From an uncultured Candidatus Saccharibacteria bacterium (GTDB taxonomy: Bacteria; Patescibacteriota; Dojkabacteria; SC72), in NCBI GenBank assembly GCA_964405015.1, contig CAYOME010000001.1, forward strand, positions 77,611 through 141,610: a stretch of DNA of 64,000 bases, written 5' to 3'. A program made the position numbers and the translations under genes. A model generated the notes under the pieces. That model ran no database searches, was not told where the DNA came from, and saw only the letters and a program-made list of their open reading frames with translations. Each line of letters starts with the position of its first letter. The stretch's first letter is position 1. Of this stretch, positions 5,357 to 42,868 are shown one piece after another.

Positions 5357-5363
5357 TATACTT

Positions 5364-16016: not shown

Positions 16017-16094
16017 GGTGGCTATAGCTCAATTGGTTAGAGCATCGGTTTGTGGAACCGAGGGTTGTGGGTTCAAGTCCCATTAGCCACCCCA
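16017..16094 (+). tRNA. tRNA-His (anticodon GTG), with encoded G-1 and encoded CCA
   Basis: A cloverleaf was built by hand. The acceptor stem is GTGGCTA/TAGCCAC with G-1:C73. D-arm is GCTC...GAGC and the anticodon stem is TCGGT/ACCGA with loop TTGTGGA. The T-arm is GTGGG-TTCAAGT-CCCAT, and the 3' end is CCA. Confidence 0.9.
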
Positions 16095-17576: not shown

Positions 17577-20061
17577 CAGTGTAATTCATTCTAAAACTTA
17601 TTCTATTTTCATAATTATCTTGCTTGACTAATTCGTAATAGAATTTATCATTCAGCTTTGCCTTCACTACACCTTCAGCTTCTAATCTTTCTATGGACAT
17701 TTCATTGATAAAATTGAATAAGTCTCCTTTATACAATGTGTCTTTGTTGCCTTCTAAATGCTCACCTTTGCTTTCAACAATATAGACAAAATCAAGTTTT
17801 CCATCCTCATCCTTCTTTGCTACCACAAAGTCAGGTCTAACCTTATCTTTTTGCCATCCTTGAATTGCATACCAGCCCTTACTTGCTCTATTTCTAACCC
17901 ACCAAATGGTGTTTTTTTGTCTTTCTAAATGCTTCGCGACATCAAGCTCTAATCCGTTTATGCTTGTAATATCAAAGTCTTCATATAGGTAATACTTGTA
18001 TGGGTTGTGCGGATAATCTTTGATTTTATCTTGCTCTGGTAATCTGAAACCAATTTCCTTGTCGCTAACTGCTATTACAAGTGTTTTGTCATCAACCATC
18101 CTATTAAATATCTCTTTTTCTTGGACTCTTTTGATATTTTCAAATGCTTTGATAATTTCAGAAATGATAAAACCATTATATTTACCTAAATCTTTTTCGT
18201 CTTTTACTTTCTTGATAAGTAACTTAAACAACTTTTCTGAAATATATCTAGATACAAAGGCATTTTCTATATAGTCATTTAATCTTCTTGTTAAGTATTC
18301 TGTATCGAAATGAACATCACTAAACCTTACTTCACTGCTCATACTCTCTGTGATAGCTCCTTCATCCATACCAACCTTAATAAGTGTTGTTTCAAATGTC
18401 TCATTGCCAATTAAAGGAATAATACCATCTGTTATAGTTTCCAAATCAACTCCTTCATAATCAATCTTTGGCTTTATATCTACACTATAGTTAAACTCTC
18501 TGTATAAACCATTCTTCTCTTTTATTAGCCATAAAGGAAGATACAAACTTTCAGGATACTTCTCTTTTAGCTCTCTCTTAATCTTCACGACCTTTGTTAC
18601 TGATTCACTTGTTTCAGTTTCTGTATTGATACTGTATTTGGCTAAATCATCAAGTCCTTCGTTCTTAAATCCATTCTTGATTGTAGTTAGAATATTTTGA
18701 GTATGTCCGTTACAGTAATAAATATAGCTCTCGTCTAGGATTGGAGTTCCAGTCTTCTTGCCAAATGGTTGTCTTAAGACTCTTCCTACTAACTGGGTTA
18801 CGCTTGTATTTGAATTTACATTAGGGATAATTCCCAAAATATATGCAAACGGACAATCCCAACCTTCTTTTAGAGCATCTTTAGTTATTATGTATCTGAT
18901 AGGGCATTCTCTCGAAAGAAGGTCTATATTTTCAATATCATTTACACTACTTGTTTTTATAGCGATTTCTTCATCGGGAACACCTATGTCCTTTAGATAT
19001 TCTTTAATATCTTCACTATGCACAAAACCTTTTCCTCTCTGCTCTTTACCAGTTCTTTCTACTTGTATCAAGGCTATTGGTCTTATGTATTGTCCTGTGT
19101 TACTGTCATAATCTTTAGCTACTTTCTCTATCTTCTCTCTATAATCCTTAATCTCTTTCGTCATTGTTTGCCAATCTTCATTGCTAGTTGGAGCAATTAT
19201 GTTCATATCCAGCTTAACCATTTCTGCATCTTTTAGCTCTTGTCCTGTTACAGAAACCAATACATTCATTCCTGCCTTTGGAGTTGCTGAAAAACCTACA
19301 ACCATAGAAGGATTTAATCCATTAACAGTTTCAATTGCCTTTGGTGAGAATACTTTGTGTATTTCATCAATGATAATAAGAGGTCTTGTCAACCTTAAGA
19401 CATTTCCTAAACTTGTTTTAACCTGTGGCATAAAAGAATTAACACCTTGAAAGACATCAAGATTAGGAACTTTTTCTAATAGCTCGTGATGTAAGTCATA
19501 TCTGTTATCTTGTGGAAAGAAAGAGTTGTATGAGCCACTATCCATAAACACTTTGAGGCTTTCTTTTGTAGTTCTATTTACTGATTGAATCATAAGCATA
19601 AGAACTACAAGGTTTTCTTCTACATCTTCCGCTCTTAATTCCTGATTCTTTTCTACAATAAGAGTATGTCCTGCACTTGCTTGGTCTAGTAGTTGTCTAT
19701 ATGGGTCTGCTTTATCTCTTAACCTTTCTACTGTTTGAGAGTAGATAATTTCAGATGGAACTATCCATACAACAAGTCCTGTTTTTCTTTTAGCAAATAT
19801 GTCTTGATACTGTCTTATTGTATCTACTGCCAAGAGCGTTTTACCGCCCCCTGTAGGAACTTTAATACACAGTCGAGGGTAGAACTCATTTAGACCATTT
19901 CTATCCATATCTGGGACTCTAGAGAGTCCTACCTTATTGAATGCTAGTTGAACCCAAGCGTCTGGGTCAACATCCTTCAACAAGCTTCTTACTTCAGATG
20001 CTGTTTCTAGGTAATCTTTGAGCTTTTTAGCTACTTTTGTTTGATATGGCTTGAATATCAT
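17554..20061 (-). CDS. res: Type III restriction enzyme, Res subunit
   Basis: SF2 helicase motifs: Walker A 'PTGGGKT' and DEAH-box 'IIIDEIHK'. ~835 aa. Sits immediately downstream of mod with a 2-nt gap. Confidence 0.85.
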   Translation of the reverse strand: MIFKPYQTKVAKKLKDYLETASEVRSLLKDVDPDAWVQLAFNKVGLSRVPDMDRNGLNEFYPRLCIKVPTGGGKTLLAVDTIRQYQDIFAKRKTGLVVWIVPSEIIYSQTVERLRDKADPYRQLLDQASAGHTLIVEKNQELRAEDVEENLVVLMLMIQSVNRTTKESLKVFMDSGSYNSFFPQDNRYDLHHELLEKVPNLDVFQGVNSFMPQVKTSLGNVLRLTRPLIIIDEIHKVFSPKAIETVNGLNPSMVVGFSATPKAGMNVLVSVTGQELKDAEMVKLDMNIIAPTSNEDWQTMTKEIKDYREKIEKVAKDYDSNTGQYIRPIALIQVERTGKEQRGKGFVHSEDIKEYLKDIGVPDEEIAIKTSSVNDIENIDLLSRECPIRYIITKDALKEGWDCPFAYILGIIPNVNSNTSVTQLVGRVLRQPFGKKTGTPILDESYIYYCNGHTQNILTTIKNGFKNEGLDDLAKYSINTETETSESVTKVVKIKRELKEKYPESLYLPLWLIKEKNGLYREFNYSVDIKPKIDYEGVDLETITDGIIPLIGNETFETTLIKVGMDEGAITESMSSEVRFSDVHFDTEYLTRRLNDYIENAFVSRYISEKLFKLLIKKVKDEKDLGKYNGFIISEIIKAFENIKRVQEKEIFNRMVDDKTLVIAVSDKEIGFRLPEQDKIKDYPHNPYKYYLYEDFDITSINGLELDVAKHLERQKNTIWWVRNRASKGWYAIQGWQKDKVRPDFVVAKKDEDGKLDFVYIVESKGEHLEGNKDTLYKGDLFNFINEMSIERLEAEGVVKAKLNDKFYYELVKQDNYENRISFRMNYTDESNNHS

Positions 20062-20063
20062 CG

Positions 20064-21647
20064 CTATTTTTCTCTTTCAAATAGGTTATACGGAATACTT
20101 ACGAACTTGATATTGAATTGCTCCAAGTATTCATCATCCATAAAACAAGCAGGTGCATATACAATCTTTTTAGTCTCATTCCCTTCGGAAATTTCTTTAG
20201 CCCATTCAAAGGTTATAGCCATCTTCTTAAGTTCTTCCATATCAGGAGTGTAGAGTAGGTATACTTCTGTGTGGTCTACTTTTCCTGCTAGATATTTCTT
20301 TTCATCTATATCTTTGTCTTTTGGTGATTGTCCTGTTGCAAGGTAATACACATATTTCGCTAATTGTTTATATGTAGGCAATTGTCCTGATAGTATCGTT
20401 TCAGCATCTATTGGTTGTCCAACTCTTCTATATTCAAAACCAATATCTTTATTTGTTAATTTCTTCTCAATTACTTTTACAACTCTCTCTCTTGTAATAT
20501 CTCTTGCAATATTCTTCTTTGGCTCCTTTTCACTGTTTTCAGGCATTTGAATAAGGATAAATTTTCTATTACCTTCGTCTTCTTCATTTAACTCTAAAAC
20601 TGCTTGTGCTGTAGTTCCTGAACCTGCAAAAGCATCTAGAATAATGCCATCTTTATTTGGCGATAAACTAATTAAATGTTTAAGTAAAGTAACTGGTTTT
20701 GGGTTCTCAAACAGACTTTCCTCGCCAAGTAACTCTCGTAAATCACGGCTTGCTGAATCTGTTGTTCCATATAAATCGAGCAAATTGGGTTGAGCAGAAA
20801 GGCTGTCTTCTTCTTCGAAATCGTATATTTTTAATCGAACAATTCCATCGTCACCTTTTACAAAACGACCCTTCTCTTCAAGGGCTAAAGCTTTATCTTT
20901 GCCTATTTGCCATCTTTTCCCTCTGCGTGGCTTTTGTCCCAGTATCTCGAATTGCATAGAGTCCCTTTTATAGCTTCCAGTGTTTTTCTTCTCTATAACA
21001 CTTAATCTATAATTACCCTCTTCATCATCGTATGGATATTCCCTTGTTTCAGAACTTCTTACCCTTGGGTTCAACTTTGCTTTTGTAGTTTTGGAATAGC
21101 ATAAAATATACTCCGTAAGAGAGCTAACCTCTGCACCTGTTACATTGGATGTTGTTCCTTTCTTCTTCCATAGAAAGGTTGCCTTAAAATTTTCATCAGT
21201 AAAAATTTCATCCATAATGTCTCGAAGGCGGTGTATTTCGTTATCGTCGAGACTAATAAAAATCACCCCACTTTCAGAGAGCAACTCCCTCATAAGTTTT
21301 AATCTTGGAGTCATCATAGATAACCATTTATCGTGTCTTGTTAAATCATCAGAACCTACTTCTTTACCTATCCATTCCTTTACCAAAGGGCTGTTTACAT
21401 TGTCGTTGTAAACCCAGCCCTCATTTCCTGTGTTGTAAGGCGGGTCTATATAGATACAATCAACTTTCCCTGTGTATTGTGGTAACAAGCTCTTCAACGC
21501 GGGCAAATTATCACCTTCAATAATCAAGTTTCCATCTGCTTTATCCTGTTTATATGAGAGTTTTTCATCTAAATCTAAAGTATGGTATGGAACTGACATA
21601 TGATGATTCCATATTATGTTTTTACCCTTAAATTGTAGAGTTGCCAT
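20064..21647 (-). CDS. mod: Type III restriction-modification methyltransferase, Mod subunit (N6-adenine, beta class)
   Basis: Motif IV 'IYIDPPYNTG' and AdoMet motif 'FAGSGTTAQA'; the order is mod-res, as in Type III systems. Confidence 0.9.
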   Translation of the reverse strand: MATLQFKGKNIIWNHHMSVPYHTLDLDEKLSYKQDKADGNLIIEGDNLPALKSLLPQYTGKVDCIYIDPPYNTGNEGWVYNDNVNSPLVKEWIGKEVGSDDLTRHDKWLSMMTPRLKLMRELLSESGVIFISLDDNEIHRLRDIMDEIFTDENFKATFLWKKKGTTSNVTGAEVSSLTEYILCYSKTTKAKLNPRVRSSETREYPYDDEEGNYRLSVIEKKNTGSYKRDSMQFEILGQKPRRGKRWQIGKDKALALEEKGRFVKGDDGIVRLKIYDFEEEDSLSAQPNLLDLYGTTDSASRDLRELLGEESLFENPKPVTLLKHLISLSPNKDGIILDAFAGSGTTAQAVLELNEEDEGNRKFILIQMPENSEKEPKKNIARDITRERVVKVIEKKLTNKDIGFEYRRVGQPIDAETILSGQLPTYKQLAKYVYYLATGQSPKDKDIDEKKYLAGKVDHTEVYLLYTPDMEELKKMAITFEWAKEISEGNETKKIVYAPACFMDDEYLEQFNIKFVSIPYNLFEREK

Positions 21648-21843
21648 ATTTTTTACTTTTTTCCAAAAAATTATTTAGGTCTTGGACATCTATTCTGTAT
21701 TGTTTACCGACTTTATAAGCAGTTAGCTTACCTGCTTTTACCCATCTAAATACAGTCAAATAGGATATTTTTAATAATTCAGCGATTTCATCTATTGTGT
21801 AGAATTGTGTGGCAGTTTTTTCTTGGTTATTCATCTTTATCAT
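21628..21843 (-). CDS. Excisionase/AlpA-family helix-turn-helix protein, a putative recombination directionality factor or R-M controller
   Basis: 71 aa; 'YTIDEIAELLKISYLTVFRWVKAGKLTAYKVGKQYRI' matches the HTH_17 excisionase-family HTH. Overlaps the mod start by 20 nt. Confidence 0.7.
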   Translation of the reverse strand: MIKMNNQEKTATQFYTIDEIAELLKISYLTVFRWVKAGKLTAYKVGKQYRIDVQDLNNFLEKSKKYGNSTI

Positions 21844-21883
21844 TATTTAACATTTTATATAAATATTCAAGAGATATGGAAAA

Positions 21884-23029
21884 TTATTTATGAACTACTC
21901 CTGTTAATTCTCTAGGTATAGTAACAAATAGGTTAAATTTGGATAATTGCTCATCAATATCATTGATAATATATGCCCTGTTATCCTCAACCTTTAGATT
22001 CTTAAGGAGTTTTTTGTAATTGCTCCATTTGTAACTGTCCTTTCCATACCAACCCATTGTGCTTCTTAATGCTTGAATCCCTCTAGTAGATATAATCCCT
22101 TGCATAAAAGATGTATTTATTAACTGTCTCTCTGATAGTTGTGGGTTTAGATTTTTAATAGATATCATCTTCTCGTAAAAATCCTCAGGCTTCCAAGTGA
22201 TACTTACATATTTATTTTTTATCTCTTTATTCCAAAAACTCGATAACATTGCTTGTGATAGCTTCCTACTGAATAGCTCTTTGAAGGTAAGTGGTGTTTC
22301 AGAATACTCAGGAGCGTAGCTCTGAATCTTTCTTTTTATTGCTTTCTGCCCAGTCATTCTAAACTCAAAACGCAGATAGTTATTATTAGGTAACTCATCA
22401 AGGAGATTAAGTTGTGTATATACTTGTTTATCTATACTCCTATCTTCGCTTATTTTACCTTGCTCTAATTCCCTTACTTTGTCATAAATAGCAAATTCAC
22501 TATCCTTATTATGTATATGTATTATTTGACCACCATTTTTGAATTGGTTCTCTGAGAAATCCTGCTTTAGATTGGTATCCAAAGCTTTCTTAAGCTGATT
22601 TAATACCATAGGACAGTTCAAGCCATCAGATAGCAGTATATTCTTAGAGAAGTGTATACCAACAACCTTAGAATCGATTAGACGCCCTCTAGAGATATGA
22701 AATTGATGCATCTTAAGTTTTAATTCAAGTTCATCAATGATTGATTCAAAATCATATTCACACACCTCTTGAAAATTGTTCTTGTAGAGTAGTTTAGGTA
22801 TTGAGAATTGAATATTTAAGCTAATATCTAATTCATTACGATACCTTCTGTAGAGAGTGTAAATAGGCACATATATACCTAGTTTTCTTTCTATCTCACT
22901 CGGATTTCGAGTATAAAATCTATAACCTCTGTCTGTTGTAAAAACATTCATAGCAGAGGGATTAAATTGTTCTAAATTGCCTATATCCATCTTTGTTGCT
23001 GGTATGGATAGAGTTATTGTGTCTATCAT
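21884..23029 (-). CDS. Hypothetical protein of the island core, weakly Rep_trans-like (a possible replication initiator)
   Basis: 381 aa. The N-terminus 'IDTITLSIP' and the internal 'RFEFRMTGQKA' recall rolling-circle Rep_trans proteins, but the resemblance is weak. Confidence 0.35.
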   Translation of the reverse strand: MIDTITLSIPATKMDIGNLEQFNPSAMNVFTTDRGYRFYTRNPSEIERKLGIYVPIYTLYRRYRNELDISLNIQFSIPKLLYKNNFQEVCEYDFESIIDELELKLKMHQFHISRGRLIDSKVVGIHFSKNILLSDGLNCPMVLNQLKKALDTNLKQDFSENQFKNGGQIIHIHNKDSEFAIYDKVRELEQGKISEDRSIDKQVYTQLNLLDELPNNNYLRFEFRMTGQKAIKRKIQSYAPEYSETPLTFKELFSRKLSQAMLSSFWNKEIKNKYVSITWKPEDFYEKMISIKNLNPQLSERQLINTSFMQGIISTRGIQALRSTMGWYGKDSYKWSNYKKLLKNLKVEDNRAYIINDIDEQLSKFNLFVTIPRELTGVVHK

Positions 23030-23291
23030 TCTTTTTCAATACTTCTTTTAATCTTTTATTTACTGCTTTCTCTATCGCTTGCCCTGATTCTTTGTTGATA
23101 GGGTAGTAGATATTGAAATTCTTCTCTCCAACCTTCCTTGTTGGATATACAAGTCGATATGATTCTTCTTCTAATCGCTTTATAACACCAATATTCCCAA
23201 GATAGATTGCATCTCCAATTACCAAACTTGCAAACGCTACTAATCCCTCTTTTGGCTTTACCAAATCAATACTTATTTCACTTATTTTCAT
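22962..23291 (-). CDS. SpoVG-like nucleic-acid-binding protein
   Basis: 'LVAFASLVIGDAIYLGNIGVIKRLEEESYRLVYPTRKVGEKNFNIYYPINKESGQAIEKAV' aligns with the conserved SpoVG core (KAxASITLDxxFVVxDIRVIxGxxGLFVAMPS...DIAHPINxxxRxxIQDAV). ~100 aa. Confidence 0.6.
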   Translation of the reverse strand: MKISEISIDLVKPKEGLVAFASLVIGDAIYLGNIGVIKRLEEESYRLVYPTRKVGEKNFNIYYPINKESGQAIEKAVNKRLKEVLKKNDRHNNSIHTSNKDGYRQFRTI

Positions 23292-23546
23292 TTACCTATA
23301 GCTTTAATTTAATATTCTCCTGTTCTATTTCATCTAAAAGAACAACAAAGTTAATTAGCTTCTCTATTTCGAAAGATTGTTCTGGAGATGTTTTAATAGT
23401 TGACTTATTTTCTATCAGTTTCTTCCATTTCTTATACTTTTGTTCTTTTTTGATATTTTCCATCATCAAGTAGATTCTATGATGACAGCTATAACCCTGT
23501 CGTAAAACAGGGATAAAATGGGATTTAATGGGATAGTTTGGAACTG

Positions 23547-24194
23547 TTACAATGTTACAGGGTTTTTGAATTTGATAGTGCTCTTTTCTGGATTAATGCT
23601 ATCTTCGTGGATATCAAAAAAAGTATCCTTCAGACCAGCTCTGAAACCCCATCTATCTGTAATCTTTTGGAATTTATCACTAATCACAATTCCTAATTGT
23701 TTTTCAAGTTCTTCCTTTTTATATATTGTATTTGGGTTATCATATAACCATTTGAATATACTTTCATTATCACGACCGAATTGCGGCTTAGAGAGTAATA
23801 TCTTTCCGTTTAATCTAATATTCCTATCTGATTTATACTCAACAAAAAAGTGATTGTTTTCAATTGTATTCTGGATAGAGTCGACCACATTAAGTTCCGA
23901 AGTAGCTTGAGCTATCAATTTTAAAAAATAATCTTTGTCTTTTACCTTTATATTATACCGAGCAGGAATAGGGGGTGGGAAATAACCTTCAAAGGGATTA
24001 AAAATTTCAAGTATTTCTAATTTACCATCCCTTTCAAATTGGTATAGGATAGAAAGTGCCTCATCATATTTAATATCTTTGATATGTTCACATCCAAAAT
24101 CTAATGTAGGATTTTCATCGGAAAGAACGAGCTTTGTAGCATCTATAATTGCAATAGCAAACTGTATTTTCTTTTCCTCGTAATTCATCTTCAA
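23547..24194 (-). CDS. Hypothetical protein (island cargo)
   Basis: 215-aa ORF; no recognisable motif. Confidence 0.4.
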   Translation of the reverse strand: MKMNYEEKKIQFAIAIIDATKLVLSDENPTLDFGCEHIKDIKYDEALSILYQFERDGKLEILEIFNPFEGYFPPPIPARYNIKVKDKDYFLKLIAQATSELNVVDSIQNTIENNHFFVEYKSDRNIRLNGKILLSKPQFGRDNESIFKWLYDNPNTIYKKEELEKQLGIVISDKFQKITDRWGFRAGLKDTFFDIHEDSINPEKSTIKFKNPVTL

Positions 24195-24479
24195 TACATC
24201 GTTATTTAATAGTTGTTTTAATAGTATTATAGCACTGCTTAAAGAAATCTTCTTAAGACAACTTTTATTCTCGGATATCTATATATGTAAACAACACCCC
24301 CTCCCTGGATACCCTATATCTACAAATAACAAAAATTTTCAATAAAAAGATAAGGAAGAAAGTCCTGTCTAATAAGAAAATTGACTCACGAGATGGTTTT
24401 CACAAGACCAAAATTGAATTCATAAAATTAACCCAATAAAAACAGTTGGGAAATGATTAAAAATAGGTGAGATAACTCT

Positions 24480-24800
24480 CTACTCTTTAAATCCAGTGGA
24501 ATCACGACAAAGAGTTCTTAACGTCTCTATGTCCTCTGTTCTCATATTAGGAAGACCTAGACCTTCTGAAACACATTCCATATATTTTTTTCTTTTTGCC
24601 TCGTTTTGAGATTCTAACTCTACCATTTGGTCCAGAATTAACTGTTCCTGTTGGTTTTGTAATTCCAATTCTCTTATCTGCCTATCAGAAATATCTTTGC
24701 TATTTTTTTGCCATACAAACCCAATAATAACTGCTACCAAAACTAGGGACACTCCAATAATCAAAGAGACTGTAACTGTAGTGTTATTCTTCTTTGCCAT
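24480..24800 (-). CDS. Small membrane-anchored coiled-coil protein
   Basis: An N-terminal TM helix followed by a Q/E-rich coiled coil. Confidence 0.4.
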   Translation of the reverse strand: MAKKNNTTVTVSLIIGVSLVLVAVIIGFVWQKNSKDISDRQIRELELQNQQEQLILDQMVELESQNEAKRKKYMECVSEGLGLPNMRTEDIETLRTLCRDSTGFKE

Positions 24801-24878
24801 AAGAGCAATGCTAAATTTATAACCAATTATAACAAAAATGGCTTAACGGTTACAGTTTGTTTACAGTATAATCAACAT

Positions 24879-25844
24879 ATGAGTGAAGAAGTATTGAAAA
24901 AGAAACAAATTATAGAGAAACAACACTATATTCCGCAATTTTACCTAAAACAGTTTGAAGATAAGAATCATCTGATTCAGAGGCTAGATATTAAAGCAAA
25001 CGTAATAATTAAGCCCAAGGGTAAGAAGGGTATTTGCTTTGACAAATTTTTCTATGCTTTAGAAACAGGTGTAGAAGATGAAGTCAGTCAATTGGTAGAA
25101 GAATGGTTAGGTAACCTAGAGAAACACTTATCAAAAAAACTCCCTGAGATAATAGACTCTCTATCCTGTAATGATGCTGTCCCTGATGAAGACAAATATG
25201 ATGTTGCAATGTTAATGGCAATGTTATATTTAAGAGGTCCTGTCTTCCGTAGGAAGCTAAACGAAATGAGATTATCAGGTATAAAACAACTTCTTCAAAT
25301 GTTTTCAAAAATTCCGAAAGATACAGTTGAAGATTATTTTAAGAATCGATATGAAGTTAGCCTAACAAAGGCAGAATTAAACAAACTCCTAAATGGTGAG
25401 GTTGACGACCTAAAGTTTAACAACCTTCTTCATTTGGAAATGATGAACGAGTTACGAGGTTTTTCAAATATGCTTTTTGGGCAAGAATGGCTGGTTTATA
25501 GAAATAAGTCTAGTTATCCATTTGTTACTTCTGATAATCCTTTGAGCCCTGAGAGGTTAGAAAGAAAAAACTTCTATACTGGTGCTTTTATGGATTACAC
25601 TTATCATTTCGCATTATCACCGAAGATACATATTGTTAGTAAAATGCCTAGATTTGTTGAAGGAAAAAAACTTCATAGAAAAACTTTAACAGAAACAGAT
25701 AATGATTTAGTTTTGAGATTGAATCTCTATGTAGCAGATACTTGTAGACAGTTTGTATATGCGTCGAAACGAAGTGCTTTAGAAGATATTTCTGATATTA
25801 TCAGAAGATACAAAGAAATTATTAGACTCAAACAGGAAGAATAA
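24879..25844 (+). CDS. DUF4238-family protein
   Basis: The N-terminal 'QHYIPQFYLKQF' hallmark of DUF4238; ~320 aa. A TATAAT hexamer lies 10 nt upstream of the ATG. Confidence 0.55.
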   Translation: MSEEVLKKKQIIEKQHYIPQFYLKQFEDKNHLIQRLDIKANVIIKPKGKKGICFDKFFYALETGVEDEVSQLVEEWLGNLEKHLSKKLPEIIDSLSCNDAVPDEDKYDVAMLMAMLYLRGPVFRRKLNEMRLSGIKQLLQMFSKIPKDTVEDYFKNRYEVSLTKAELNKLLNGEVDDLKFNNLLHLEMMNELRGFSNMLFGQEWLVYRNKSSYPFVTSDNPLSPERLERKNFYTGAFMDYTYHFALSPKIHIVSKMPRFVEGKKLHRKTLTETDNDLVLRLNLYVADTCRQFVYASKRSALEDISDIIRRYKEIIRLKQEE

Positions 25845-25918
25845 TCAAGCAATATTAAAACCAAAATTCAAAATTGAAACAACTCTATCAATTAGAATAA
25901 CTTGTTCAGAGTCAAGGT

Positions 25919-27571
25919 TCATAATAACGTCATATAACCGACCCCAGATAATATTTTCATAGATTCTAATGCGTTAAAAGGTTCACGAAGCTCATAGTGA
26001 AGCACCTTTTTATCACCTACAGAAATGTTCACAAACACTAATTTGACCAACTGATCAATTAGATAGGCATTTTCAGTATTTTCTATTGTAGCAACTATGT
26101 TTTTAAAGAAGTTCACAAATAAATCATAATCAGGGAATTCAACATTTGCATGATATTCAGCTTCCTTATTCTGAACTTCTAGACCCTCTCTTTCTACCTC
26201 TAGATCTCTTATTTGGTGAATAATAATCTTCATTTCTTTTGAAAGCTGATTATTAACCACTTCATCTGTGGTTTTCAATATTTTCTCACTATATAGATTC
26301 CTCTTCTTCTCAAGACTAGTAATTCTTATATTCAATTTCCTAATTTCCTCATTTCTTTCTTTTGTTAAAGAATTTACCTCTTCAAAGTAAATCATCTTAG
26401 TTTTATCATAACTAGGCCTTGTAACATTCAAATTCTTACTTATAAAATCAGTTACAAAATCTAGAATTATCTTACCTCTAATTGTATTAGCAATCGGTTT
26501 AATCTTTTTTGTCCTTCTAGTTTCTTTACACTTATTATTCCCACAAGTAACATTCAAATATCTATCAGACTTTCCTGCACTGACACCTGGAATCATAATA
26601 GAACCACAATCACTGCACATTACAAAATCCTTAAAAGGTCTGAAGTTATTATTCATTTTCCAACCTCTTGGATATATTGTTCCTCTCTTTTGAATTGCGA
26701 TGAAATCAGAAGCCGAAACCATAGGTTTAAAATCAGGATCAACAGATAATAAATCAATAACTTGATCACCATAACAATAAAAGCCCGCAGAAAATGGATC
26801 CTTAAAGAAGCCAGAAAGCTTACCCGTATTTAACTCTAATCCTTCATTTTCTAATTCAGCAACAATCTCTTTCTGGGATTTTCCTTCTTTATATTGTTCC
26901 CAAGCATAAGTATAACTATCGTAAGTGTTTTTATCGGGTCTAAAGAAATCAGCTTTATTGGGAAGATATCCTTTTTTACTGGATCCCATGTATTTACCCT
27001 CACTAACTTTCTTCTTATTTCCTCTTTTTGTATCTTCAGAAAGTTTATCCGAGAATTCCTTAGCCATTGCAAAAAGGATACTTAATGTCATTTTACCCGC
27101 CGCATCATTATTGAAAGTGTAAGAGGGGAATTTGAGGTCAATAATATGGTCGTTGTCCAACATGTCCATAATCTCACCTGACTCTTTCATGTTCCTTGCT
27201 AATCGGTCTGGATGCCATGCAAGAATGGAATTATATGAATTCCCTGAGTTCAAGGTATCAAGCATTCTTTGAAATTCAAGTCGCTTACCAGCTGTCATAG
27301 CACTTTTTTCTTCTCTAATAATCTCAACAACTTCTAGATTATTATCCTTAGCAAATTTCTTACAAATATCTATCTGATCATCAATAGATTGAACTTGTCT
27401 CTTTTCATCTTCGGTAGATTTACGAGCATAAATAACATAGAGAGCTTTCTTATCTATTAAATCTCTTTCATCTTTAGTCTTTTTCTTTTTAGAGTTGTAA
27501 ACTTGAGCGTAAGAGCGCAGTAATTCTCTAGATTGAACTTCTGTAAGTTTGTCCGCAGATTCCTTCATCAA
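25919..27571 (-). CDS. Large serine recombinase 2
   Basis: Resolvase domain 'ALYVIYARKSTEDE' with the catalytic Ser, a recombinase domain, a zinc ribbon 'CSDCGS...CGNNKC' and a C-terminal coiled coil. Same orientation as recombinase 1. Confidence 0.85.
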   Translation of the reverse strand: MMKESADKLTEVQSRELLRSYAQVYNSKKKKTKDERDLIDKKALYVIYARKSTEDEKRQVQSIDDQIDICKKFAKDNNLEVVEIIREEKSAMTAGKRLEFQRMLDTLNSGNSYNSILAWHPDRLARNMKESGEIMDMLDNDHIIDLKFPSYTFNNDAAGKMTLSILFAMAKEFSDKLSEDTKRGNKKKVSEGKYMGSSKKGYLPNKADFFRPDKNTYDSYTYAWEQYKEGKSQKEIVAELENEGLELNTGKLSGFFKDPFSAGFYCYGDQVIDLLSVDPDFKPMVSASDFIAIQKRGTIYPRGWKMNNNFRPFKDFVMCSDCGSIMIPGVSAGKSDRYLNVTCGNNKCKETRRTKKIKPIANTIRGKIILDFVTDFISKNLNVTRPSYDKTKMIYFEEVNSLTKERNEEIRKLNIRITSLEKKRNLYSEKILKTTDEVVNNQLSKEMKIIIHQIRDLEVEREGLEVQNKEAEYHANVEFPDYDLFVNFFKNIVATIENTENAYLIDQLVKLVFVNISVGDKKVLHYELREPFNALESMKILSGVGYMTLL

Positions 27572-27878
27572 CTACATTATATAGTATCCTTCGGTATCTT
27601 TTACATAATATTTTTACGTTTAGCTTTTTTAACCTTCTTTCCAGAAGATTTCGCAATTTCAGCATTAACAGACTCTATGAGAATGGGAATGTTTTTAATC
27701 GGATTTTCAATTGTAATTGGTTTTATTCTTGTCAAAAAAGTAGAAAGTTACAAGTAACTTTCCATCCTTTTTTGTGTTTTTCTCAATCATCTCACTACCA
27801 TTCCCAGTGGTAGTTATTACATTATGAAAGAATCCTATCCATTTTGCAACTCATAATATTCAGATCTATAATTAAAAC

Positions 27879-29585
27879 ATGAAGGATGATATGGAATCTC
27901 TCCAGCCTTTTTGGGCTTCAGCGGATGAACTTTATGGAGAAATAAAAAGAGAAAAGGAAACCCTTATTGATTTAATAAAGGATTTAGATAAAAGAGAATT
28001 GATAAGAATATTCTCTGAACTTGTCGATGAGATAAATAAAAACAAGATGGCATTAAATGCCCAATATATACTTCCTTATCTAAACAGAAAAGAGAGAAAA
28101 AGACTTGAAAAGATTATCGACCTTGAAAAAGACTTCTTAATACACAAACAGCAATTATTTACTGCAATGAAGATTGTCTTCAAATATGCAAATGGTGATG
28201 AAAAAGTAACCGAGGAAAACAAATCAAAAATAGGGAAGTTTTTATTAAGTATCAACTATCTTTCAGATGAAGACGCTCGAGTAAAGAATGAGGAAAGACC
28301 TGATGACCTATTAAACAATTTAACAGGTGATCTCCTACCAGTCTTCTTCATTTCTGCAATTCTTGATCCTTCCAATAGATTCACAACACATTCTTTAGCT
28401 AGACAGTATTATAATTTTGTTCGATACTGGGAAGATCACTCTGGAGATAAAGATCTTGCAGTTCTTGAAGAAGATTTTGAAAAACTCACAGGTTTAAAGC
28501 TAAAAGATTACTTTACACTTTGCTTTGCTCTCGCATATCAAATAGTAAATGAGAAAGAATTCAAACCTCTAGATCTATTAAAATACTTTTCAAATACAAC
28601 GTTAGAAAAAGAAGTGAAATATTTAGAAGGGAGATTTTCTTCGAGCATTGAAGATTATAAGAAATCACCATTCTGGAATCCGAAAGAAGAAACACTACAA
28701 TCTCTAATGAAAGCAGATTATCTACCTATTATACAAAAACCATTGTGTTTAATAGACGACAAGAACAGTATAATCTTAGACAAATCTCTCTTAGCAAAGA
28801 AAATTCTTGAAGATCCATACTGGATACTAGAAAATCATTATTTAGCTCAAAAAGATGAAAAGAAAAGAAGGCAGCTATCAAGTGCTTTTGGGAATATGTG
28901 GCAAGATTATGTTTTAAAACAAATTCAGACAAATTTAACAACCAATGTCACAGAACTAGATGAAGAAGAATCAACAGGACAAATTGCAGACTTTTTAATA
29001 GAAACAGATAGTGCAATCATTGTAATTGAAACGAAGCATTTTATATACAGTTTGGATACTCAATCTGGAAAGCTTGAGAGTTTCAAGAAGGATACAGAGA
29101 AAGTTTTTGGAGATAAGCATGGCCTAATCCAAATAGATAGCACAATAGAGAATCTCAAACTAGAAGAAAAAGGGAAAAAGATATACAGAGTTATAATGAC
29201 CGATGAACTTGTTCCTGAAAATTTTATTTACTTCAAATACTATGAAGATCAATTTCCAAGCTATACCCCGAAGAATGAAAATATCAGCTATCCCATTGTT
29301 ATCACAAAAGATGAATTTGAAAGAATTATCACAGTTGGAGAAAAAGAATTTTGTGAATTACTAGAAATCCGAGATCAGGAATTGAAAGATCACGATGGTA
29401 AGGGTTTAACAAAAAATAAAGATGTCCAGAACACAATGCTAACATTGCAAGAGCATCCTGATCTAAAAAATAAAGAAAAGAATAATGTTTATTCAAAAGA
29501 GTTATTTGATGAACTCGCAGATTACGTTCGAAAATACTTATTTCCTAAGAAATACGAAGAAGAAAAAAAGGATAAGCAAAAATAA
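27879..29585 (+). CDS. Hypothetical protein with a C-terminal PD-(D/E)xK-like motif (putative nuclease)
   Basis: 568 aa. 'IADFLIETDSAIIVIETKH' gives a D...E-x-K arrangement on beta-strand-like hydrophobic segments; the N-terminal 350 aa are helical and unknown. Confidence 0.4.
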   Translation: MKDDMESLQPFWASADELYGEIKREKETLIDLIKDLDKRELIRIFSELVDEINKNKMALNAQYILPYLNRKERKRLEKIIDLEKDFLIHKQQLFTAMKIVFKYANGDEKVTEENKSKIGKFLLSINYLSDEDARVKNEERPDDLLNNLTGDLLPVFFISAILDPSNRFTTHSLARQYYNFVRYWEDHSGDKDLAVLEEDFEKLTGLKLKDYFTLCFALAYQIVNEKEFKPLDLLKYFSNTTLEKEVKYLEGRFSSSIEDYKKSPFWNPKEETLQSLMKADYLPIIQKPLCLIDDKNSIILDKSLLAKKILEDPYWILENHYLAQKDEKKRRQLSSAFGNMWQDYVLKQIQTNLTTNVTELDEEESTGQIADFLIETDSAIIVIETKHFIYSLDTQSGKLESFKKDTEKVFGDKHGLIQIDSTIENLKLEEKGKKIYRVIMTDELVPENFIYFKYYEDQFPSYTPKNENISYPIVITKDEFERIITVGEKEFCELLEIRDQELKDHDGKGLTKNKDVQNTMLTLQEHPDLKNKEKNNVYSKELFDELADYVRKYLFPKKYEEEKKDKQK

Positions 29586-30125
29586 TACCAAGATTTTTAC
29601 CAAGTTTTCCATAGTTTTTTAGTAACAAGGGAAGTTTTGAAACGCTTATGTAAATGCTACTAGTAGTTAACCAATAAGTATCACCAGGGAAAAGAAAGTA
29701 GAGTGTCTTAAGAAATACTCTTAAACCATCCATCTATTTTCTATCCTTTGTGAGGATCACTCCCTCAACATCTATGTATATCTTCATGTTACTACTATTT
29801 AATATTAATAACCCTCAACTTTCAAACCATTTTCCACTAAACACTTCCTATATTGATCAGGAGAATGAAGAATATTTAAAAGAAAATTATAAAGTAAAGG
29901 ATTAGTCTGGAAGGATATCCCCCCTAAAACTAAGTCTATCTTCCAATATATTCCAACATGGTCATCCATACCCCGATGTAACTAATCATCTACTTTGTAT
30001 CAATTTCCGACACACTAAATATTGAAATTTTGTTTTCATACCATGTATTACCATGTTTTGTTGAAAAAAGATGTAGTAGGGTAGCAATAATGGATTTTTA
30101 TTAAAGACATTAAAATTGCAACGTT

Positions 30126-30827: not shown

Positions 30828-31289
30828 CTAATATAATGCTCCTTGAATTACTTTAAAATATTTACCTCTATTCCTGTGATATTGGGGAAATTCTTTCTCT
30901 AAGTTTTCTACAATTTCCTTAAGGTTATTATCAACCTTTCTCCAGCAATCTAGTTTATCCTTTTGACATAGTATTTTTTCTTCATCACCAGAGATTCTAT
31001 TAGTAAACCAGTAAACTTTGTGTCTAAAATCGATAGCATCTGTTCTCAGGTCTTCCCAATTTACAACCTTCATAAACTTTAATCTATAGAATATATCTCT
31101 CTCCAAGACTCTATCAAAGTGTTCAATTAGTAAAGACGTATCACCACTTCTACAAAGGGTAGATAATATAAATACATTTCCATCAAATATCGTAGATAGT
31201 ATATCTAGAAATTCTTTTAGGTATGGCATTTGTTTACCATCTTTTATTAATATGACATTATCAATATCTATATATGCTCTCATAATCAT
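30828..31289 (-). CDS. Small HAD-like hydrolase (possible nucleotidase)
   Basis: N-terminal 'AYIDIDNVIL' matches HAD motif I (DxDx[TV]), with 'ILSTL' and 'GDEE' as candidate motifs II and IV. Only 153 aa. A 3-nt gap separates it from the hydrolase. Confidence 0.35.
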   Translation of the reverse strand: MIMRAYIDIDNVILIKDGKQMPYLKEFLDILSTIFDGNVFILSTLCRSGDTSLLIEHFDRVLERDIFYRLKFMKVVNWEDLRTDAIDFRHKVYWFTNRISGDEEKILCQKDKLDCWRKVDNNLKEIVENLEKEFPQYHRNRGKYFKVIQGALY

Positions 31290-32023: not shown

Positions 32024-33901
32024 TTAGAATCTATATACAATGTTCTTTTTTGCCTTTCTTTGACCACTGAAATCAAGAAGCATTTTTTCGAAATTCTCAT
32101 TACTTTCTTTTAACTTTTTTTGTTTTTTATCATAATAAAGAGTATCTTCAACAAACCCTTTAATTTCACTTGATACTAACTTAGTTGTGTCTTGAGGACA
32201 AACAGACAACAATTCTAATAGCATAGAAAATACTAAATTACTGACAAAGAAATAATATGGTATTAACTCGTTATTAAAACCTACTTCTAAATGATCCGCT
32301 CCGTTGTGTATAATCTTTGAGCGATATGAATAAGCTTTGCTATATCTTTTATTAAAATTCTGAAAATTTAAGCCTAAAGACTTAATTATTTTAGAATGAT
32401 TTTTAAAGAGCTCTTTATTTTGATAATTTATTGAATGTTCGTATTCTAAAGCATTACGCATATTTGAATTTTTAAATTCAGGAACTTTGTTGATTATCTC
32501 AATTATCTTTTTAAACTCTAGGTCTCCTTCGCCTTTTCTCCTAGAAGGAGTAAAATATGCTCCGAGTTTATCTATAATTCCCCACAGCTCTACGTAGGAG
32601 GATGCTAAAGAATGGGGTTGCTTAGAATCACGGTAATCCCTCAACAAGCCTTTTATGAAAAGCCTGAAGTTCTTACCTTTTCTATGAAGATTTGTTATTG
32701 ATGGATTTAGATATTTTGCATACTCAAAACTATACAACGAATTATAGGATCTTCCTTTATGACTATTATAAATGTAATTCCTCTCTGAAAAAATCGCGTT
32801 TCTATTAAATAACGATAAAATCAAAGATATCTCTTCAAGAAATTCTAACGGTTGTTCAACTTTTTGGGAATTTAATTCTAATGTATGTGTCCAAATCATT
32901 CTCCCCTCCGATGGAGGAAATATTTCCTCTTTAATCTCAGCTGGAATCCCAAGGGAGATATCTACAGATCTCTTAGAGGTCTTAGTCGGTTTATAAAAAA
33001 ATCTCATATCTTGATCATAAGTGAGATTCTTAACAATCCTAAATCGAGATGCGGAGATATAAGGAAAGCCATCGATCTCAAAGTTGTAAAGTTTATATAG
33101 CAATATTTTACTTTTCGAATCAAGACCTCTATCCTTTATATTTATTAGCAATCCAGTTGACAAATCAGACTTTAAAAAAGTATCTTTTATAGAGATAAAT
33201 CCACCTTTGTATGAATACCTTTCTTCCAATAATTTTAACAACCTTTCTGAAAATATATAGAATTCACCTAAAAATATGTTAACAGCTTTGAAAAGTTCAG
33301 GAATAGGTGAATTGTCTCTTGGTATAATACTAATCTTTTTCGTTCCATCTTCTTCTATAGATGTTTGCGCTTTTGTCATGTTTAAATACCCTTTTTGAAA
33401 CCTGTTCAACAAAATTTGTATTTGCTGTTGATTCTCAGTTAACAGAAAAAGCTTCAAGTATTCTGCAATTGTTGTATCTCTTAGCGCTAGCTCGTTAATA
33501 ATCTCTTCAACCTGAATTTCTTCATCTTTGACACCCAAATCAAAGAAATAAGCAATAAAATTTAACATACTATATTTTATTGTGTAAATGTGGTTGATCA
33601 GATCTAACAAAAGGAAACCTTTGACGAAGTCTTTGCTATACATCTCATTAGAAAGGGGTAGTTCGCCATTTATATGTTTAACTGAAAAATTCAAATCTTT
33701 TATTCGATCACGTAAATAAATAATTCTTTGTAGAGAGGCTTGATTACGAACAAACTTGTTAATGTTTAGTTTTTCATGAATGCTAACTCCTGAATTTAAT
33801 GGATCCTCTGTTGCAAACTGCGATACAGTAGATTGTATCTTATCCCATATTTCTAATATTTTTTCCGGATCTTCTGTAACACTTAGTTTATTATGTTCCA
33901 A
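32024..33901 (-). CDS. Hypothetical protein with a C-terminal Rx4H (HEPN-like) motif
   Basis: 625 aa, mostly helical. 'YRSKIIHNGADH' near the C-terminus fits the HEPN Rx4-6H signature. No other recognisable domain. Last gene of the MmeI-like operon. Confidence 0.4.
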   Translation of the reverse strand: MEHNKLSVTEDPEKILEIWDKIQSTVSQFATEDPLNSGVSIHEKLNINKFVRNQASLQRIIYLRDRIKDLNFSVKHINGELPLSNEMYSKDFVKGFLLLDLINHIYTIKYSMLNFIAYFFDLGVKDEEIQVEEIINELALRDTTIAEYLKLFLLTENQQQIQILLNRFQKGYLNMTKAQTSIEEDGTKKISIIPRDNSPIPELFKAVNIFLGEFYIFSERLLKLLEERYSYKGGFISIKDTFLKSDLSTGLLINIKDRGLDSKSKILLYKLYNFEIDGFPYISASRFRIVKNLTYDQDMRFFYKPTKTSKRSVDISLGIPAEIKEEIFPPSEGRMIWTHTLELNSQKVEQPLEFLEEISLILSLFNRNAIFSERNYIYNSHKGRSYNSLYSFEYAKYLNPSITNLHRKGKNFRLFIKGLLRDYRDSKQPHSLASSYVELWGIIDKLGAYFTPSRRKGEGDLEFKKIIEIINKVPEFKNSNMRNALEYEHSINYQNKELFKNHSKIIKSLGLNFQNFNKRYSKAYSYRSKIIHNGADHLEVGFNNELIPYYFFVSNLVFSMLLELLSVCPQDTTKLVSSEIKGFVEDTLYYDKKQKKLKESNENFEKMLLDFSGQRKAKKNIVYRF

Positions 33902-33922: not shown

Positions 33923-34597
33923 TTATTCTGAATTTTCTGGCCATAATTTTGGCATAGATTCAGGAGCACGAATTTGCCAAAATGTATTCGGAATACTAAG
34001 ATTCTTATCATCGTCTTCATGATAAAAAGTGATATTTTTATAGGGATCAAATGCATTAAGTCCATATTGAGAACATAGCAATATTCCAAGCGCAGCAACA
34101 GAGAACACTGCATTTTCCAGGTTCGCCCAATAAAATTTAGAGTCTCTATTATGTTTTACTTGATTATATACATAATACCAGTCTAACCATTCTCCATTAT
34201 CGCAGAACTTCCAAACATCAGAATATCCTGAACAGCTCTGCCATGTCATATAAGGAGATAAATTCGCACCATATTGTCCTTCTATTTTCCAATCAGCTAA
34301 AAGGGGAGAATAAAAACAATAATCATAAAGCTCGAGTTTATTTGCTGATTTAAAATAAGTTTCAATATTGGAATTCTTTATCTCTTCATCAGTTGAATTA
34401 TTCTTCTTTAATATCTGGCGAGAAACATTTTCAAATTCAGTCCCACATCTGAGAATTATTTCATAAAAACGATGAGAGTAGGTTTGCTTGTTTTGATCAA
34501 CAGGTTCTATATAATCAAAAGTTTTTAAAAGGTCACTCTCTAAAAGGTTGTATGCTTTGCAATTAGAAAACCTTCTATCCACTTCCAGTCTATTCAT
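33923..34597 (-). CDS. Hypothetical protein (Trp/Tyr/Cys-rich)
   Basis: 224 aa with no recognised motif; a 21-nt gap separates it from the next gene. Confidence 0.45.
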   Translation of the reverse strand: MNRLEVDRRFSNCKAYNLLESDLLKTFDYIEPVDQNKQTYSHRFYEIILRCGTEFENVSRQILKKNNSTDEEIKNSNIETYFKSANKLELYDYCFYSPLLADWKIEGQYGANLSPYMTWQSCSGYSDVWKFCDNGEWLDWYYVYNQVKHNRDSKFYWANLENAVFSVAALGILLCSQYGLNAFDPYKNITFYHEDDDKNLSIPNTFWQIRAPESMPKLWPENSE

Positions 34598-34636: not shown

Positions 34637-37600
34637 TTAGAAAGCCACAGTGTCAATTTCTTTGATTATTTTATCAGTTTCTCTAAGAACTATTGTTATC
34701 ATGGAATAGTGTTCAATATCATCAGGACTTAATTCTCTCCCTTTCCTATCCATCAACCATTTCTGAGCTGGTTGATATCCACCTATATAGAAATTCCAAG
34801 CTACTTCGGATACATTTCCGAAACATTGAGTAGAGTTGACATATATCTTTCCATCCTCAAACTTTGTCCTTTCAACAACATTATTTCCTTCTCCTAGGTA
34901 TGATACCTCGTATGGGTCTATATTCTTGTGTTCGAGTAGATGATATTTGATAAGTTCATTTCCTAATTTAGTCAATTTATCAAATGTCTCCCGGTCTTTA
35001 GGATATGGAATTCTAGGATAATCAATTTTTAAAAATTCTTGAAATTTCTCTCTATATTTTGAACTATTAAGAACAGCGTAAGTATACCTAAGAATCTCTT
35101 CTGGAGTTATTTTGCCAATGTGAGACTCTATCTTTTCAATGATACCTTCGTTTAAGTTAGCTTTCCTCACATCTTCACCCTCGGTAAAAGTATAGAGTGG
35201 AAATATTTGCTCTGCACCTTGCATACCTGGCCGAGACCAATATCTTCTGTCGACAATTCGATTAGAGATAAAACAAGGGGAGCTTCGAGATTCGTCAAAA
35301 CCTCTTTTCACAATAAGACCTACATTATTTCTCAACATATACTTCATAACGTTATATCTGCCATTGCATACAAAGCCATTCTGTTTACCGGTATAGAAGG
35401 TCTTACGAATATCAAAGGGTCTATATAAGATATCAACAAAATTAGTATATTCACCGATATTTTGAAGGATGTCTGCCTTTGCTCTGTTGATTTTCCAATC
35501 TCGTGAATCCTTCGTTTTATATTTTAAGGCAATTTCGTTTTCCGACAGATCGGCAAAATCATCAACAACATTCCGGATTTCTTGATCTGTAAATTGAATT
35601 GCTATCGAATCCCTAACAGTTTCAACACCAGAGACAGATTGAATAAATAAACCATCTATAGGAATATATTCATCGTAAATTGACTTATTCGTAAAATCTT
35701 TTTTAACAAAATAAAAATTTGGTTTAGTATAGTCAAGCTTAGAATACTCAATCTTATCAAATTCATTTGATAATCCCTCAAATTTCTTTTTTCTCAATCC
35801 AAATAGATCTTTATGATAAACACTTGCTAAGTTTGTTTTATCATTTCCAACTTTAACAAAAATGTTAATAGAAACACCTTGTTGGATATCAAAAACATTC
35901 TCATCCCTTGAACCATCTGGTGCAACTTCCTTCTTTTTTGAGTTTCCATGCAAGTCTAGTATATAAATATTATCAAATGTCTCTAAAAGGTGCTTTCGCA
36001 TTTGCCTATGGGTGATACCATCCAAAAATGAATTATTTGTAATCATTGCCACAATTCCACTACCATTCTTCTCAACTAATGATTCTGCAAACCTTATAAA
36101 CTTTATATAATCATCATCTAGATTTATTTTTTTCTCATTTAAATCTTGTTTGTATACTTTAATTAAATTCTGAATCCAATCTCCTTTATTTTGTGAACTA
36201 ACACTATATGGAGGGTTTCCTAATATAACCATTATGGGTTTGTCTTTTTTAATCTCAGAAGCTTCTTTAGACTCTTGAGATATACTATCAGCTAAACCAA
36301 AGCCTTCGAACATATCACCAATTGTGTTTCCTTCTTCCAGAGAATTAGTTAGGTAGATTCCTAATCTTCTGTTGTTAAAGTATTTGAAACCCATTTCTTT
36401 TAACAACATACTCATCTTCAGATGAGCAATGGTATATGGAGCAATCATTATTTCAAATCCAAATAACCTCGGAAGAACTTCATGTAATACATAGCTTCCC
36501 CAATTTCCAGCTTGTTTTTGTCTTCTCTCGTGTATTATCTTGATAACTTCCGTTAAAAAAGTTCCTGTTCCTGTAGCAGGGTCTAATACTTGAACTACAT
36601 GTCCTTTTTCATTCTTGGAGCTGTTCGCAAGTCCTCCTGTGAGCTTAAAATCATGTTCTAGTATATGGTCTACACTTTTTACAATGAATTGAACAACTGG
36701 AAGTGGGGTATAGTAAGCTCCAAATTCTTTTCTCTTCTTACTATCATACTCTTGTAGAAAATCCTCATAGAAGTGTATTACAGGGTCTTTAGATCCTTTC
36801 TCCGTGCCGTAATAATTACTGATGAGTTTAGAGATATCTGAATGAGAAAATACTCTACAAAGCTCATCAACGATACTATCCAATCTGTCATCAAAATCAG
36901 CTCCTGCTATATGGTCGAAGAAATGTCTTAGTAGTGGGTTTGAAGCTGGAACTAAATCCCTAGCTTCTGACCTAGTAAAAGTATCAGGAGATGTATCGTG
37001 GAATCTTGCAACAAACAAGCCGTAGACTAGAGTTTGTGCATACATGTCTGCGAAATCATCGGTTGACATATCATGTATGAGTTGTCTTTTCATGGTCTCG
37101 TAGACTTTATAGATACTTCGCTTCTCTTTTTCAGGACTATTAAGCATCTCTCTTGCATTCTCTCTAATACGATATGCTTTTCCACCCATTATCTTAGCCA
37201 GATGAGAACCAGATTTAATTGCTTCTTTATGAGATTCCGTAAATTGGATTAATGTTTTTCTTAATAGCTCAAAGTTTTCTGGATTGTATGATAGGGTTCT
37301 TTCTTTTTTATCGTATGAAGCAATAGAAATAGGCTCAACGTATTTAATTCCGTTCCTGTAGAATCTAAATTCTAAATAATCTGTTAATATGAGATTGTCA
37401 TATCCATAATATCGCGTAAGTTGTTCAGATTTCTCAATCTTATCAAGTGATACTCCAATATCTTTTACTTCTACATAAAGTAGGGGAACACTTCCTTTTG
37501 ATAAAACAAAGTCTGGCTTATTACCACCTACAGCCTTTCCATCGTGATCAATGTTTGTAACTTTTATTTCGCTAAATATTTCTTTTAGAAAGTTTTCGAA

Positions 37601-42280: not shown

Positions 42281-42868
42281 ATGAAATACTTACCATTACT
42301 ATTATTTATTTTTCCATTTTTGTTTTTATCTTTTATCTTGTGTTTAAGATATACCAATTGGGGAAAAGGTTTCTCTGGGGAATTGATTGTCTCATTGTTT
42401 TTAAGGAAATTAGATCCTAAGATATACAAGGTAATAAACAATATCTATATATCAAATTCTAAAGACGTAGTTCAAATAGATCATATTGTAATTTCTAAGT
42501 TTGGAATCTTTGTAATAGATACAAAGAACTGGTTTCAAGAAATTAAGGGAAATGTTAATGATAATCATTGGTGGAATAAAGTAATCTATCAGAACGAAAA
42601 GCATAAATCATTATTAAAAATTGTTTTGGAGTGTAATCCAAGAATGGTATCTATTGTAGCTTTTTCTGGATATTCAAAAATTAATGTAAAAGGAAATATA
42701 AAGGATACGTATCTTGTAAATATTTCTAAATTACTTGAAATAATACGTTCATATAACGAGATCAAGCTTGAAAAGAATGAAATAATTGCAATATATAACA
42801 AACTTTTGAGTATAAAGAAAAATATGCACAAATACAGAATATTACATAAATCAAAATATCGTTCCTAA
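42281..42868 (+). CDS. NERD (nuclease-related domain) protein
   Basis: 'IDHIVISKFGIFVIDTKNW' matches the NERD core; N-terminal TM helix. Confidence 0.6.
   Translation: MKYLPLLLFIFPFLFLSFILCLRYTNWGKGFSGELIVSLFLRKLDPKIYKVINNIYISNSKDVVQIDHIVISKFGIFVIDTKNWFQEIKGNVNDNHWWNKVIYQNEKHKSLLKIVLECNPRMVSIVAFSGYSKINVKGNIKDTYLVNISKLLEIIRSYNEIKLEKNEIIAIYNKLLSIKKNMHKYRILHKSKYRS

Follow-up and report, generated by a model that had tools for sequence, protein, structure and literature searches.

A putative GapS1-like sensor nuclease encoded in a tRNA-linked defence island of an uncultured Patescibacteriota bacterium

Here we describe a gene encoding a predicted single-protein nuclease in the genome of an uncultured Candidatus Saccharibacteria bacterium (GTDB lineage Bacteria; Patescibacteriota; Dojkabacteria; SC72), and consider the role it may have in defence against phage. 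The DNA analysed, referred to below as the window, comprises 64,000 nucleotides (nt) of contig CAYOME010000001.1 (assembly GCA_964405015.1, forward strand, positions 77,611 to 141,610). The gene occupies positions 27879-29585 of its plus strand, beside a large serine recombinase gene and within an island that adjoins tRNA-His. Sequence comparisons place its product, a protein of 568 amino acids (aa), as a divergent and unannotated lineage of the known GapS1-like single-protein sensor-nuclease defences.

The nuclease gene, its predicted fold and its relatives

The open reading frame (ORF) begins with ATG, ends with the stop codon at 29583-29585, and was found exactly as given in a preliminary description of this DNA made from its letters and translations, with the peptide quoted there, IADFLIETDSAIIVIETKH, lying at aa 369-387 (nt 28983-29039). 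The identical protein is encoded on two independent assembly contigs, each 100% identical to the window. Full-length homologues sharing 60% identity (P0002, at a locus designated L003) and 44% identity (P0003, at locus L004 of a Caldisericia metagenome-assembled genome) have the same start, length and end, and mark this as a genuine and conserved gene.

An AlphaFold2 model built with a 59-sequence alignment of relatives (mean predicted local distance difference test score, 91.4; predicted template modelling score, 0.91) resolves the protein into an N-terminal all-helical domain with a putative sensor or regulatory role (aa 1-326; 27879-28856), a PD-(D/E)xK nuclease core (aa 327-486; 28857-29336) and, as delineated by DSSP, a C-terminal helical tail (aa 487-568; 29337-29582) that is kept in the close homologues. 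The preliminary description had pointed to a helical N-terminal region of some 350 aa, and in the model about 330 aa are almost wholly helical. The core opens with a helix (327-353) bearing a GxxF(E/Q)xYV motif and a short strand (357-359), followed by strand beta2 (372-375), with D371 immediately ahead of it, and strand beta3 (379-386), which holds E384-x-K386; helices spanning 399-425, within which Q418 lies, a strand (434-441), a helix (449-458) and a strand (473-476) then lead into the tail. This predicted topology is the canonical alpha-beta-beta-beta-alpha-beta arrangement of PD-(D/E)xK nucleases, and the model places D371 at the start of beta2 and E384 and K386 in beta3, as the PD-(D/E)xK-like motif noted in the preliminary description would lead one to expect.

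Conservation and codon reading locate the catalytic motif at 28989-29036 (D371 at 28989-28991, E384 at 29028-29030 and K386 at 29034-29036), with the auxiliary residues Q342 (28902-28904) and Q418 (29130-29132) lying beyond this span. The motif is not a product of chance: D371 is present in 59 of the 59 relatives, E384 in 58 and K386 in 43, the D and E being essentially invariant. R175 and Y344 are, like D371, invariant across the alignment, and P288 and G338 (57/59 each) and Q418 (55/59) are also conserved. K386 is replaced in 16 of the 59 relatives, by S or T in 12 of these 16, and several have an Arg a few residues later. The Lys-replaced proteins, which include P0012, P0022, P0024 and P0025 and show patterns such as IE(A/V)(S/T)A.R, may represent a sub-clade with a relocated basic residue. 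The full D/E/K set is present in the window protein.

Close relatives of the nuclease are very rare. A word-indexed homologue search returned the identical protein, a single 60% homologue and one fragment only, even with a profile of the 59 sequences, and a scan of a genome collection with the close alignment identified one locus. No matches were obtained from a viral-contig scan and two metagenome scans, from a tblastn search of plasmids and phages, or from a search of PDB sequences with the single protein. The close clade comprises four loci: the window, L003, L004, and a metagenome contig (L005) on which the gene (1-2017) is broken into three ORFs of 271, 207 and 76 aa, and is probably a pseudogene or the subject of sequencing frameshifts. 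When 1.84 billion cluster representatives were scanned exhaustively with HMMER, the search recovered 65 proteins at E <=1e-3 and 16 at E <=1e-10, the relatives being mostly 560-610 aa in length and just 17-23% identical to the window protein; with these representatives and the GapS1 link presented below, the term 'orphan', applied to the gene in the preliminary description, proves to be an overstatement. Between the window and L003, the recombinase that neighbours the gene is 84% identical and the nuclease only 60%, the most variable segment of the latter being aa 241-280 (32%) and the most conserved aa 281-320 (78%).

The sole NCBIfam match of the protein is to NF047931, 'antiphage GapS1 family' (E 6e-10, 38.6 bits), in an alignment of aa 171-394 with model positions 109-320 of 455 that reaches beyond the nuclease core into part of the helical domain. 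The same model is the only one matched by 42 of the 59 relatives (best E 9e-24), and for the shorter relatives the alignment spans nearly its whole length. All individually scored relatives fall under the curated cutoff of 320 bits (top score, 93.9 bits), as do plasmid relatives from Pseudomonas and Nostoc reached via P0066 (70-94 bits), so that the curated subfamily of GapS1 makes up only a narrow branch within a far broader superfamily. An hhalign comparison of the close clade with the higher-scoring GapS1-model relatives gave a probability of 99.4% (E 2.7e-21, aa 194-499). By these profile comparisons the protein belongs to the GapS1-like superfamily, as a very distant relative of GapS1.

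The nearest structural neighbours of the model are restriction-fold nucleases, Upx ranking first for the core, and the helical region and C-terminal nuclease both share a fold with Upx of Salmonella enterica (PDB 9wuf). A novel nuclease acting alone, or an abortive-infection protein, had been put forward as a possibility in the preliminary description. The nuclease fold and the link to the experimentally validated GapS1 support that proposal, although the protein is not wholly novel, given its membership of the GapS1-like superfamily and its Upx-like fold.

The island at tRNA-His and the DNA flanking the gene

The nuclease gene is carried by an island of roughly 22 kb (about 16.1-38.5 kb) beside tRNA-His (16018-16094). 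The island contains serine recombinase 1 (16083-17576), a Type III restriction system, a SpoVG-like gene, a DUF4238 gene, serine recombinase 2 (25919-27568, minus strand; Pfam Resolvase, E 2.5e-25) and the nuclease gene, together with an alpha/beta hydrolase gene, HAD-like genes, a LOOT RNA, two unknown genes and a Type IIG enzyme. Recombinases 1 and 2 are unrelated (22% identity), and the reading frame of the former runs into the tRNA-His sequence. At L003 the counterpart of recombinase 2 (84% identical) directly abuts the 3' end of tRNA-His: the first 41 nt of the locus correspond to the 3' end of the tRNA (97.6% identity with the window) and touch the stop of the recombinase, whose frame also runs into tRNA sequence. 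The matching junction in the window, CCGACCCCA then GATAAT..., lies at 25938-25946. These two junctions point to a tandem insertion at tRNA-His in two steps, in which the recombinase-2 island appears to have integrated at the tRNA and the recombinase-1 island (about 16095-25946) to have been inserted later between the tRNA and it. A repeat search revealed no convincing att-type repeats. The nuclease gene's island has recombinase 2 as its integrase, and the adjacency of the two genes, as reported in the preliminary description, arises because the nuclease is the first cargo gene next to that integrase.

Elsewhere the setting differs, with no recombinase beside the homologue at the Caldisericia locus L004 or at L005. 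The L005 homologue is situated ~190 nt past the 3' end of a tRNA-His, with McrB_N, SLFN-like helicase, MazG-like and PNP_UDP genes as neighbours, and relatives elsewhere are found close to restriction and defence genes, their neighbours including an Mrr nuclease, a PLD-SNF2 helicase with an Eco57I-like methylase, McrB_N, an SLFN-like helicase and a MazG-like gene. Across 7 loci no conserved partner gene of the family was found.

A promoter-like sequence detected by sequence scan, TTGCAA-17-TATAAT (27844-27872, plus strand), ends 6 nt before the ATG of the nuclease gene, which suggests a leaderless or near-leaderless mRNA. The site is kept in the four loci, its -10 element being invariant and its -35 element conserved in L003, L004 and L005. 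The -35 hexamer (27844-27849) is palindromic and also serves a divergent promoter-like site of the minus strand (27849-27821). Of the 47 ORF starts of the whole window, very few are preceded by a Shine-Dalgarno-like sequence, and TATAAT is found 5-8 nt ahead of several ATGs (e.g. 24879, 27568 (-), 27879, 31289 (-) and 47034), so that a leaderless start would be normal for this genome; the pattern suggests that leaderless mRNAs are common in the host organism.

Two further elements lie between recombinase 2 and the nuclease gene. An inverted repeat, ACTACCA-N7-TGGTAGT (27794-27814), is the same in the window and L003 save for one loop base and is degraded in L004 and L005. A small basic ORF (27601-27735, minus strand; 44 aa), situated just upstream of recombinase 2, has the core TIENPIKNIPILIESVN.EIAKSS and a counterpart of 54 aa in L003 (1667-1831, minus strand), a 1-nt indel altering its C-terminus. 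The DNA of this ORF is conserved above the flanking genes, with a remnant also in the recombinase-less L004, and the ORF could encode a recombinase helper or a leader peptide.

Downstream of the nuclease gene, the 540-bp stretch previously described as non-coding (29586-30125) holds no intact gene, in agreement with gene callers on the identical contigs, which call none. However, a portion of it derives from the 5' end of a HAD-like gene that has decayed. Comparison by tblastn with an intact HAD-like ORF of L003 (3851-4243, 130 aa) identified a pseudogene remnant of the first ~44 codons, interrupted by an in-frame TAG (29656-29787, minus strand), that translates as MKIYIDVEGVILTKDRK*MDGLRVFLKTLYFLFPGDTYWLTT and matches the N-terminal 44 residues of the L003 protein at 73% identity (E 6e-20). 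The remnant is paralogous to the window ORF at 30828-31289, has its DxD motif altered to DVE, and is conserved as DNA in L003 and L005 (L005 2322-2407). An Rfam scan of both flanks of the nuclease gene at E up to 1 gave no match, a terminator scan found none after the gene, and the homology of a 120-aa ORF of L003 to the 167-aa ORF of the window was not significant (E 0.19). As judged from these comparisons, the long gap is in part a consequence of gene decay and is not linked to the nuclease. An island boundary right after the stop codon, where global alignment with L003 loses similarity, was considered and rejected on the basis of local alignment and synteny into the HAD-like gene.

Several other features of the window were recorded. 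The DUF4238 protein (24879-25844, plus strand; Pfam E 3e-35) lies at the right end of the recombinase-1 island and has no match in PADLOC 2023; DUF4238 reportedly features in the literature on phage-defence hotspots, where a single-gene DUF4238 defence system is said to be catalogued. The LOOT RNA (Rfam RF03000; 31851-31977, minus strand; 57.9 bits against a gathering threshold of 46.4) is located between a 625-aa gene and the 167-aa gene. The former (32024-33901, minus strand) and a 224-aa gene (33923-34597, minus strand) match no family, share their strand with the Type IIG gene (34637-37708), which they directly follow, and are candidates for further defence genes. A glmS ribozyme (5354-5490, plus strand) is found upstream of glmS (5524-7290).

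Proposed function and alternative explanations

Taking the nuclease fold and homology as established, we infer a defence function, a protein trigger and a nucleic acid substrate, and consider it probable that the protein is an anti-phage protein of the GapS1/Upx type, self-contained in that it unites sensor and effector. Such a protein would join a helical domain of ~330 aa to a catalytically complete PD-(D/E)xK nuclease (Q342, D371, E384, K386 and Q418) and a helical tail. By homology, the helical domain may hold the nuclease in an inactive state that ends when the domain binds a protein made by the phage, the trigger being a capsid protein for GAPS1 and terminase for Upx, whereupon the Mg-dependent nuclease would cut nucleic acid and so halt the infected cell or the phage. 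The gene is predicted to work alone, from its own promoter and probably through a leaderless mRNA. On its serine-recombinase island, inserted at the tRNA-His 3' end, it is the first cargo gene and adjoins the integrase, and it would share a tandem defence island with the DUF4238 gene and the restriction systems of Type III and Type IIG.

A number of points weigh against this assignment. The score of 38.6 bits lies far under the curated NF047931 cutoff of 320 bits, and PADLOC 2023 gave no match for the protein. The transfer of function from GAPS1 is a long extrapolation at ~20% identity, and the molecular target of GAPS1 is itself unknown (bioRxiv 10.1101/2023.03.28.534373). The motif-I residue is Q, not E, as it is in 23 of the 59 relatives, and the geometry of the active site is derived from the predicted topology and alignments. 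In addition, the match of the helical domain to Upx comes without an aligned Upx range, and the assignment of the close clade draws on sequence and a structural model.

An alternative that we regard as unlikely, yet the strongest of those considered, is a solitary DNA-restriction endonuclease, either a modification-dependent Type IV or an orphan Type II/IIS-like enzyme, that would cut foreign DNA directly, with no phage-protein trigger, and employ its helical domain in DNA recognition. Consistent with such an enzyme, the next-best structural neighbours of the core after Upx are the Type IIS/II cleavage domains of N.BspD6I, R.BspD6I, HindIII and FokI, the gene resides within an island of restriction systems, and no cognate methylase adjoins it. 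Its direct neighbours are the serine recombinase and the alpha/beta hydrolase, where a Type II enzyme would be expected to have its cognate methylase; as the preliminary description had noted, no methyltransferase is adjacent, the nearest belonging to the self-contained Type III (20064-21647) and Type IIG (34637-37708) systems 6-7 kb off.

We consider it improbable that the protein is an accessory or maintenance factor of the island, acting as a helper nuclease for recombinase 2 or as an addiction module, and co-regulated with the recombinase through a shared divergent promoter region. The recombinase, a spacer of ~310 bp and the gene do occur in an identical layout in the window and L003, the spacer is conserved above coding DNA, and the divergent promoter-like sites have their palindromic -35 TTGCAA in common. 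However, neither the 44% Caldisericia homologue, the L005 copy nor the distant relatives have an adjoining recombinase, and the adjacency is fully explained by the position of the gene as first cargo next to the integrase proximal to the left attachment site (attL); moreover, a requirement for a nuclease is not known among large serine recombinases. Slightly less probable still is that the gene is inactive or in decay, or that it encodes a repair nuclease with a housekeeping function outside defence, as might be supposed from the three-ORF copy at L005, the extreme rarity of the clade and the gene decay in neighbouring DNA, since the window copy is intact, has a complete catalytic set, and matches its 60% and 44% homologues in length and start, and since location on a mobile island and sporadic distribution speak against housekeeping. 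Each of these explanations is less likely than a defence function of the GapS1/Upx type.

If the GapS1/Upx-type assignment is correct, one-protein immunity of the GapS1 kind would reach well past the proteobacterial subfamily caught by current annotation models, and would extend to sparse proteins of 560-610 aa that are unrecognised by Pfam and PADLOC 2023. For this genome, the nuclease gene would simply add to the ordinary cargo of a defence island linked to a tRNA.

Comparison with known nuclease systems

Several families of PD-(D/E)xK nucleases offer points of comparison. NERD (Pfam PF08378), which also belongs to this fold, provides a weak match over the core (aa 366-435), the only match returned by a Pfam scan of the protein; at 14.9 bits it lies below the gathering threshold of 22.1, and just 2 of the 59 relatives match NERD. 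A bona fide NERD protein is encoded outside the island at 42281-42868 (plus strand; Pfam E 4e-20, 72.7 bits). The ancillary CRISPR nucleases Can2 and Card1 (e.g. PDB 7bdv) carry an N-terminal CARF domain, a Rossmann-like sensor of cyclic oligoadenylate, whereas the N-terminal domain of the window protein is all-helical, and no CRISPR or CBASS genes were found near the gene. The Type IIS cleavage domains of N.BspD6I/R.BspD6I and FokI, and likewise HindIII, show no global similarity to the protein (template modelling score about 0.2), which, unlike these enzymes, is without a recognisable DNA-recognition domain or a cognate methyltransferase.

Upx is a considerably larger protein of about 1200-1270 aa (1272 aa) with three domains, including an atypical N-terminal nuclease domain (PMC13099982). 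The window protein, by contrast, comprises two domains and a tail in 568 aa, a length close to that of the C-terminal domain (CTD) of Upx (715-1272), and by size and domain order it would correspond most simply to this CTD. No PADLOC hit to Upx was obtained, and a profile of the family gave no match to the 9wuf sequence at E up to 10. The fold match across both domains suggests that two separately described defence families share a sensor-nuclease module, which, if true, would aid the prediction of triggers and the annotation of many 'hypothetical' island genes. We tentatively raise the further possibility, on which we lean towards doubt, that GapS1-like proteins, including the one described here, and the C-terminal half of Upx represent a single ancient cassette of helical sensor plus PD-(D/E)xK nuclease, with the window protein a 'minimal Upx' that would detect some conserved structural or packaging protein of phages. 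Such a reading would bring this form of sensing to a little-studied, Shine-Dalgarno-poor bacterial lineage. The authors of the Upx study report no structural homologue in the PDB (PMC13099982), and GAPS1 goes unmentioned in the Upx papers (PMC13099982, PMC13601566).

The known system to which the protein is linked by sequence is GAPS1 of Vibrio parahaemolyticus (WP_005477165.1), a single protein borne on a mobile island and possessing a C-terminal PD-(D/E)xK nuclease (Mahata et al., bioRxiv 10.1101/2023.03.28.534373). Defence by GAPS1 is lost with D313A or K328A, its trigger is the T7 capsid protein, and its outcome is dormancy (bioRxiv 10.1101/2023.03.28.534373). The window protein differs in exceeding GAPS1 by ~110 aa, its N-terminus being extended and its C-terminus bearing a helical tail, in its carriage on a serine-recombinase island at tRNA-His rather than on a GMT island, and in its host, an uncultivated low-GC bacterium. 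The two nevertheless share several features: each is encoded by a single gene on a mobile island, each combines an N-terminal part that is helical with a PD-(D/E)xK core located in the C-terminal half, and each has 15 residues from the putatively equivalent catalytic D to K (D313/K328 in GAPS1 and D371/K386 here).
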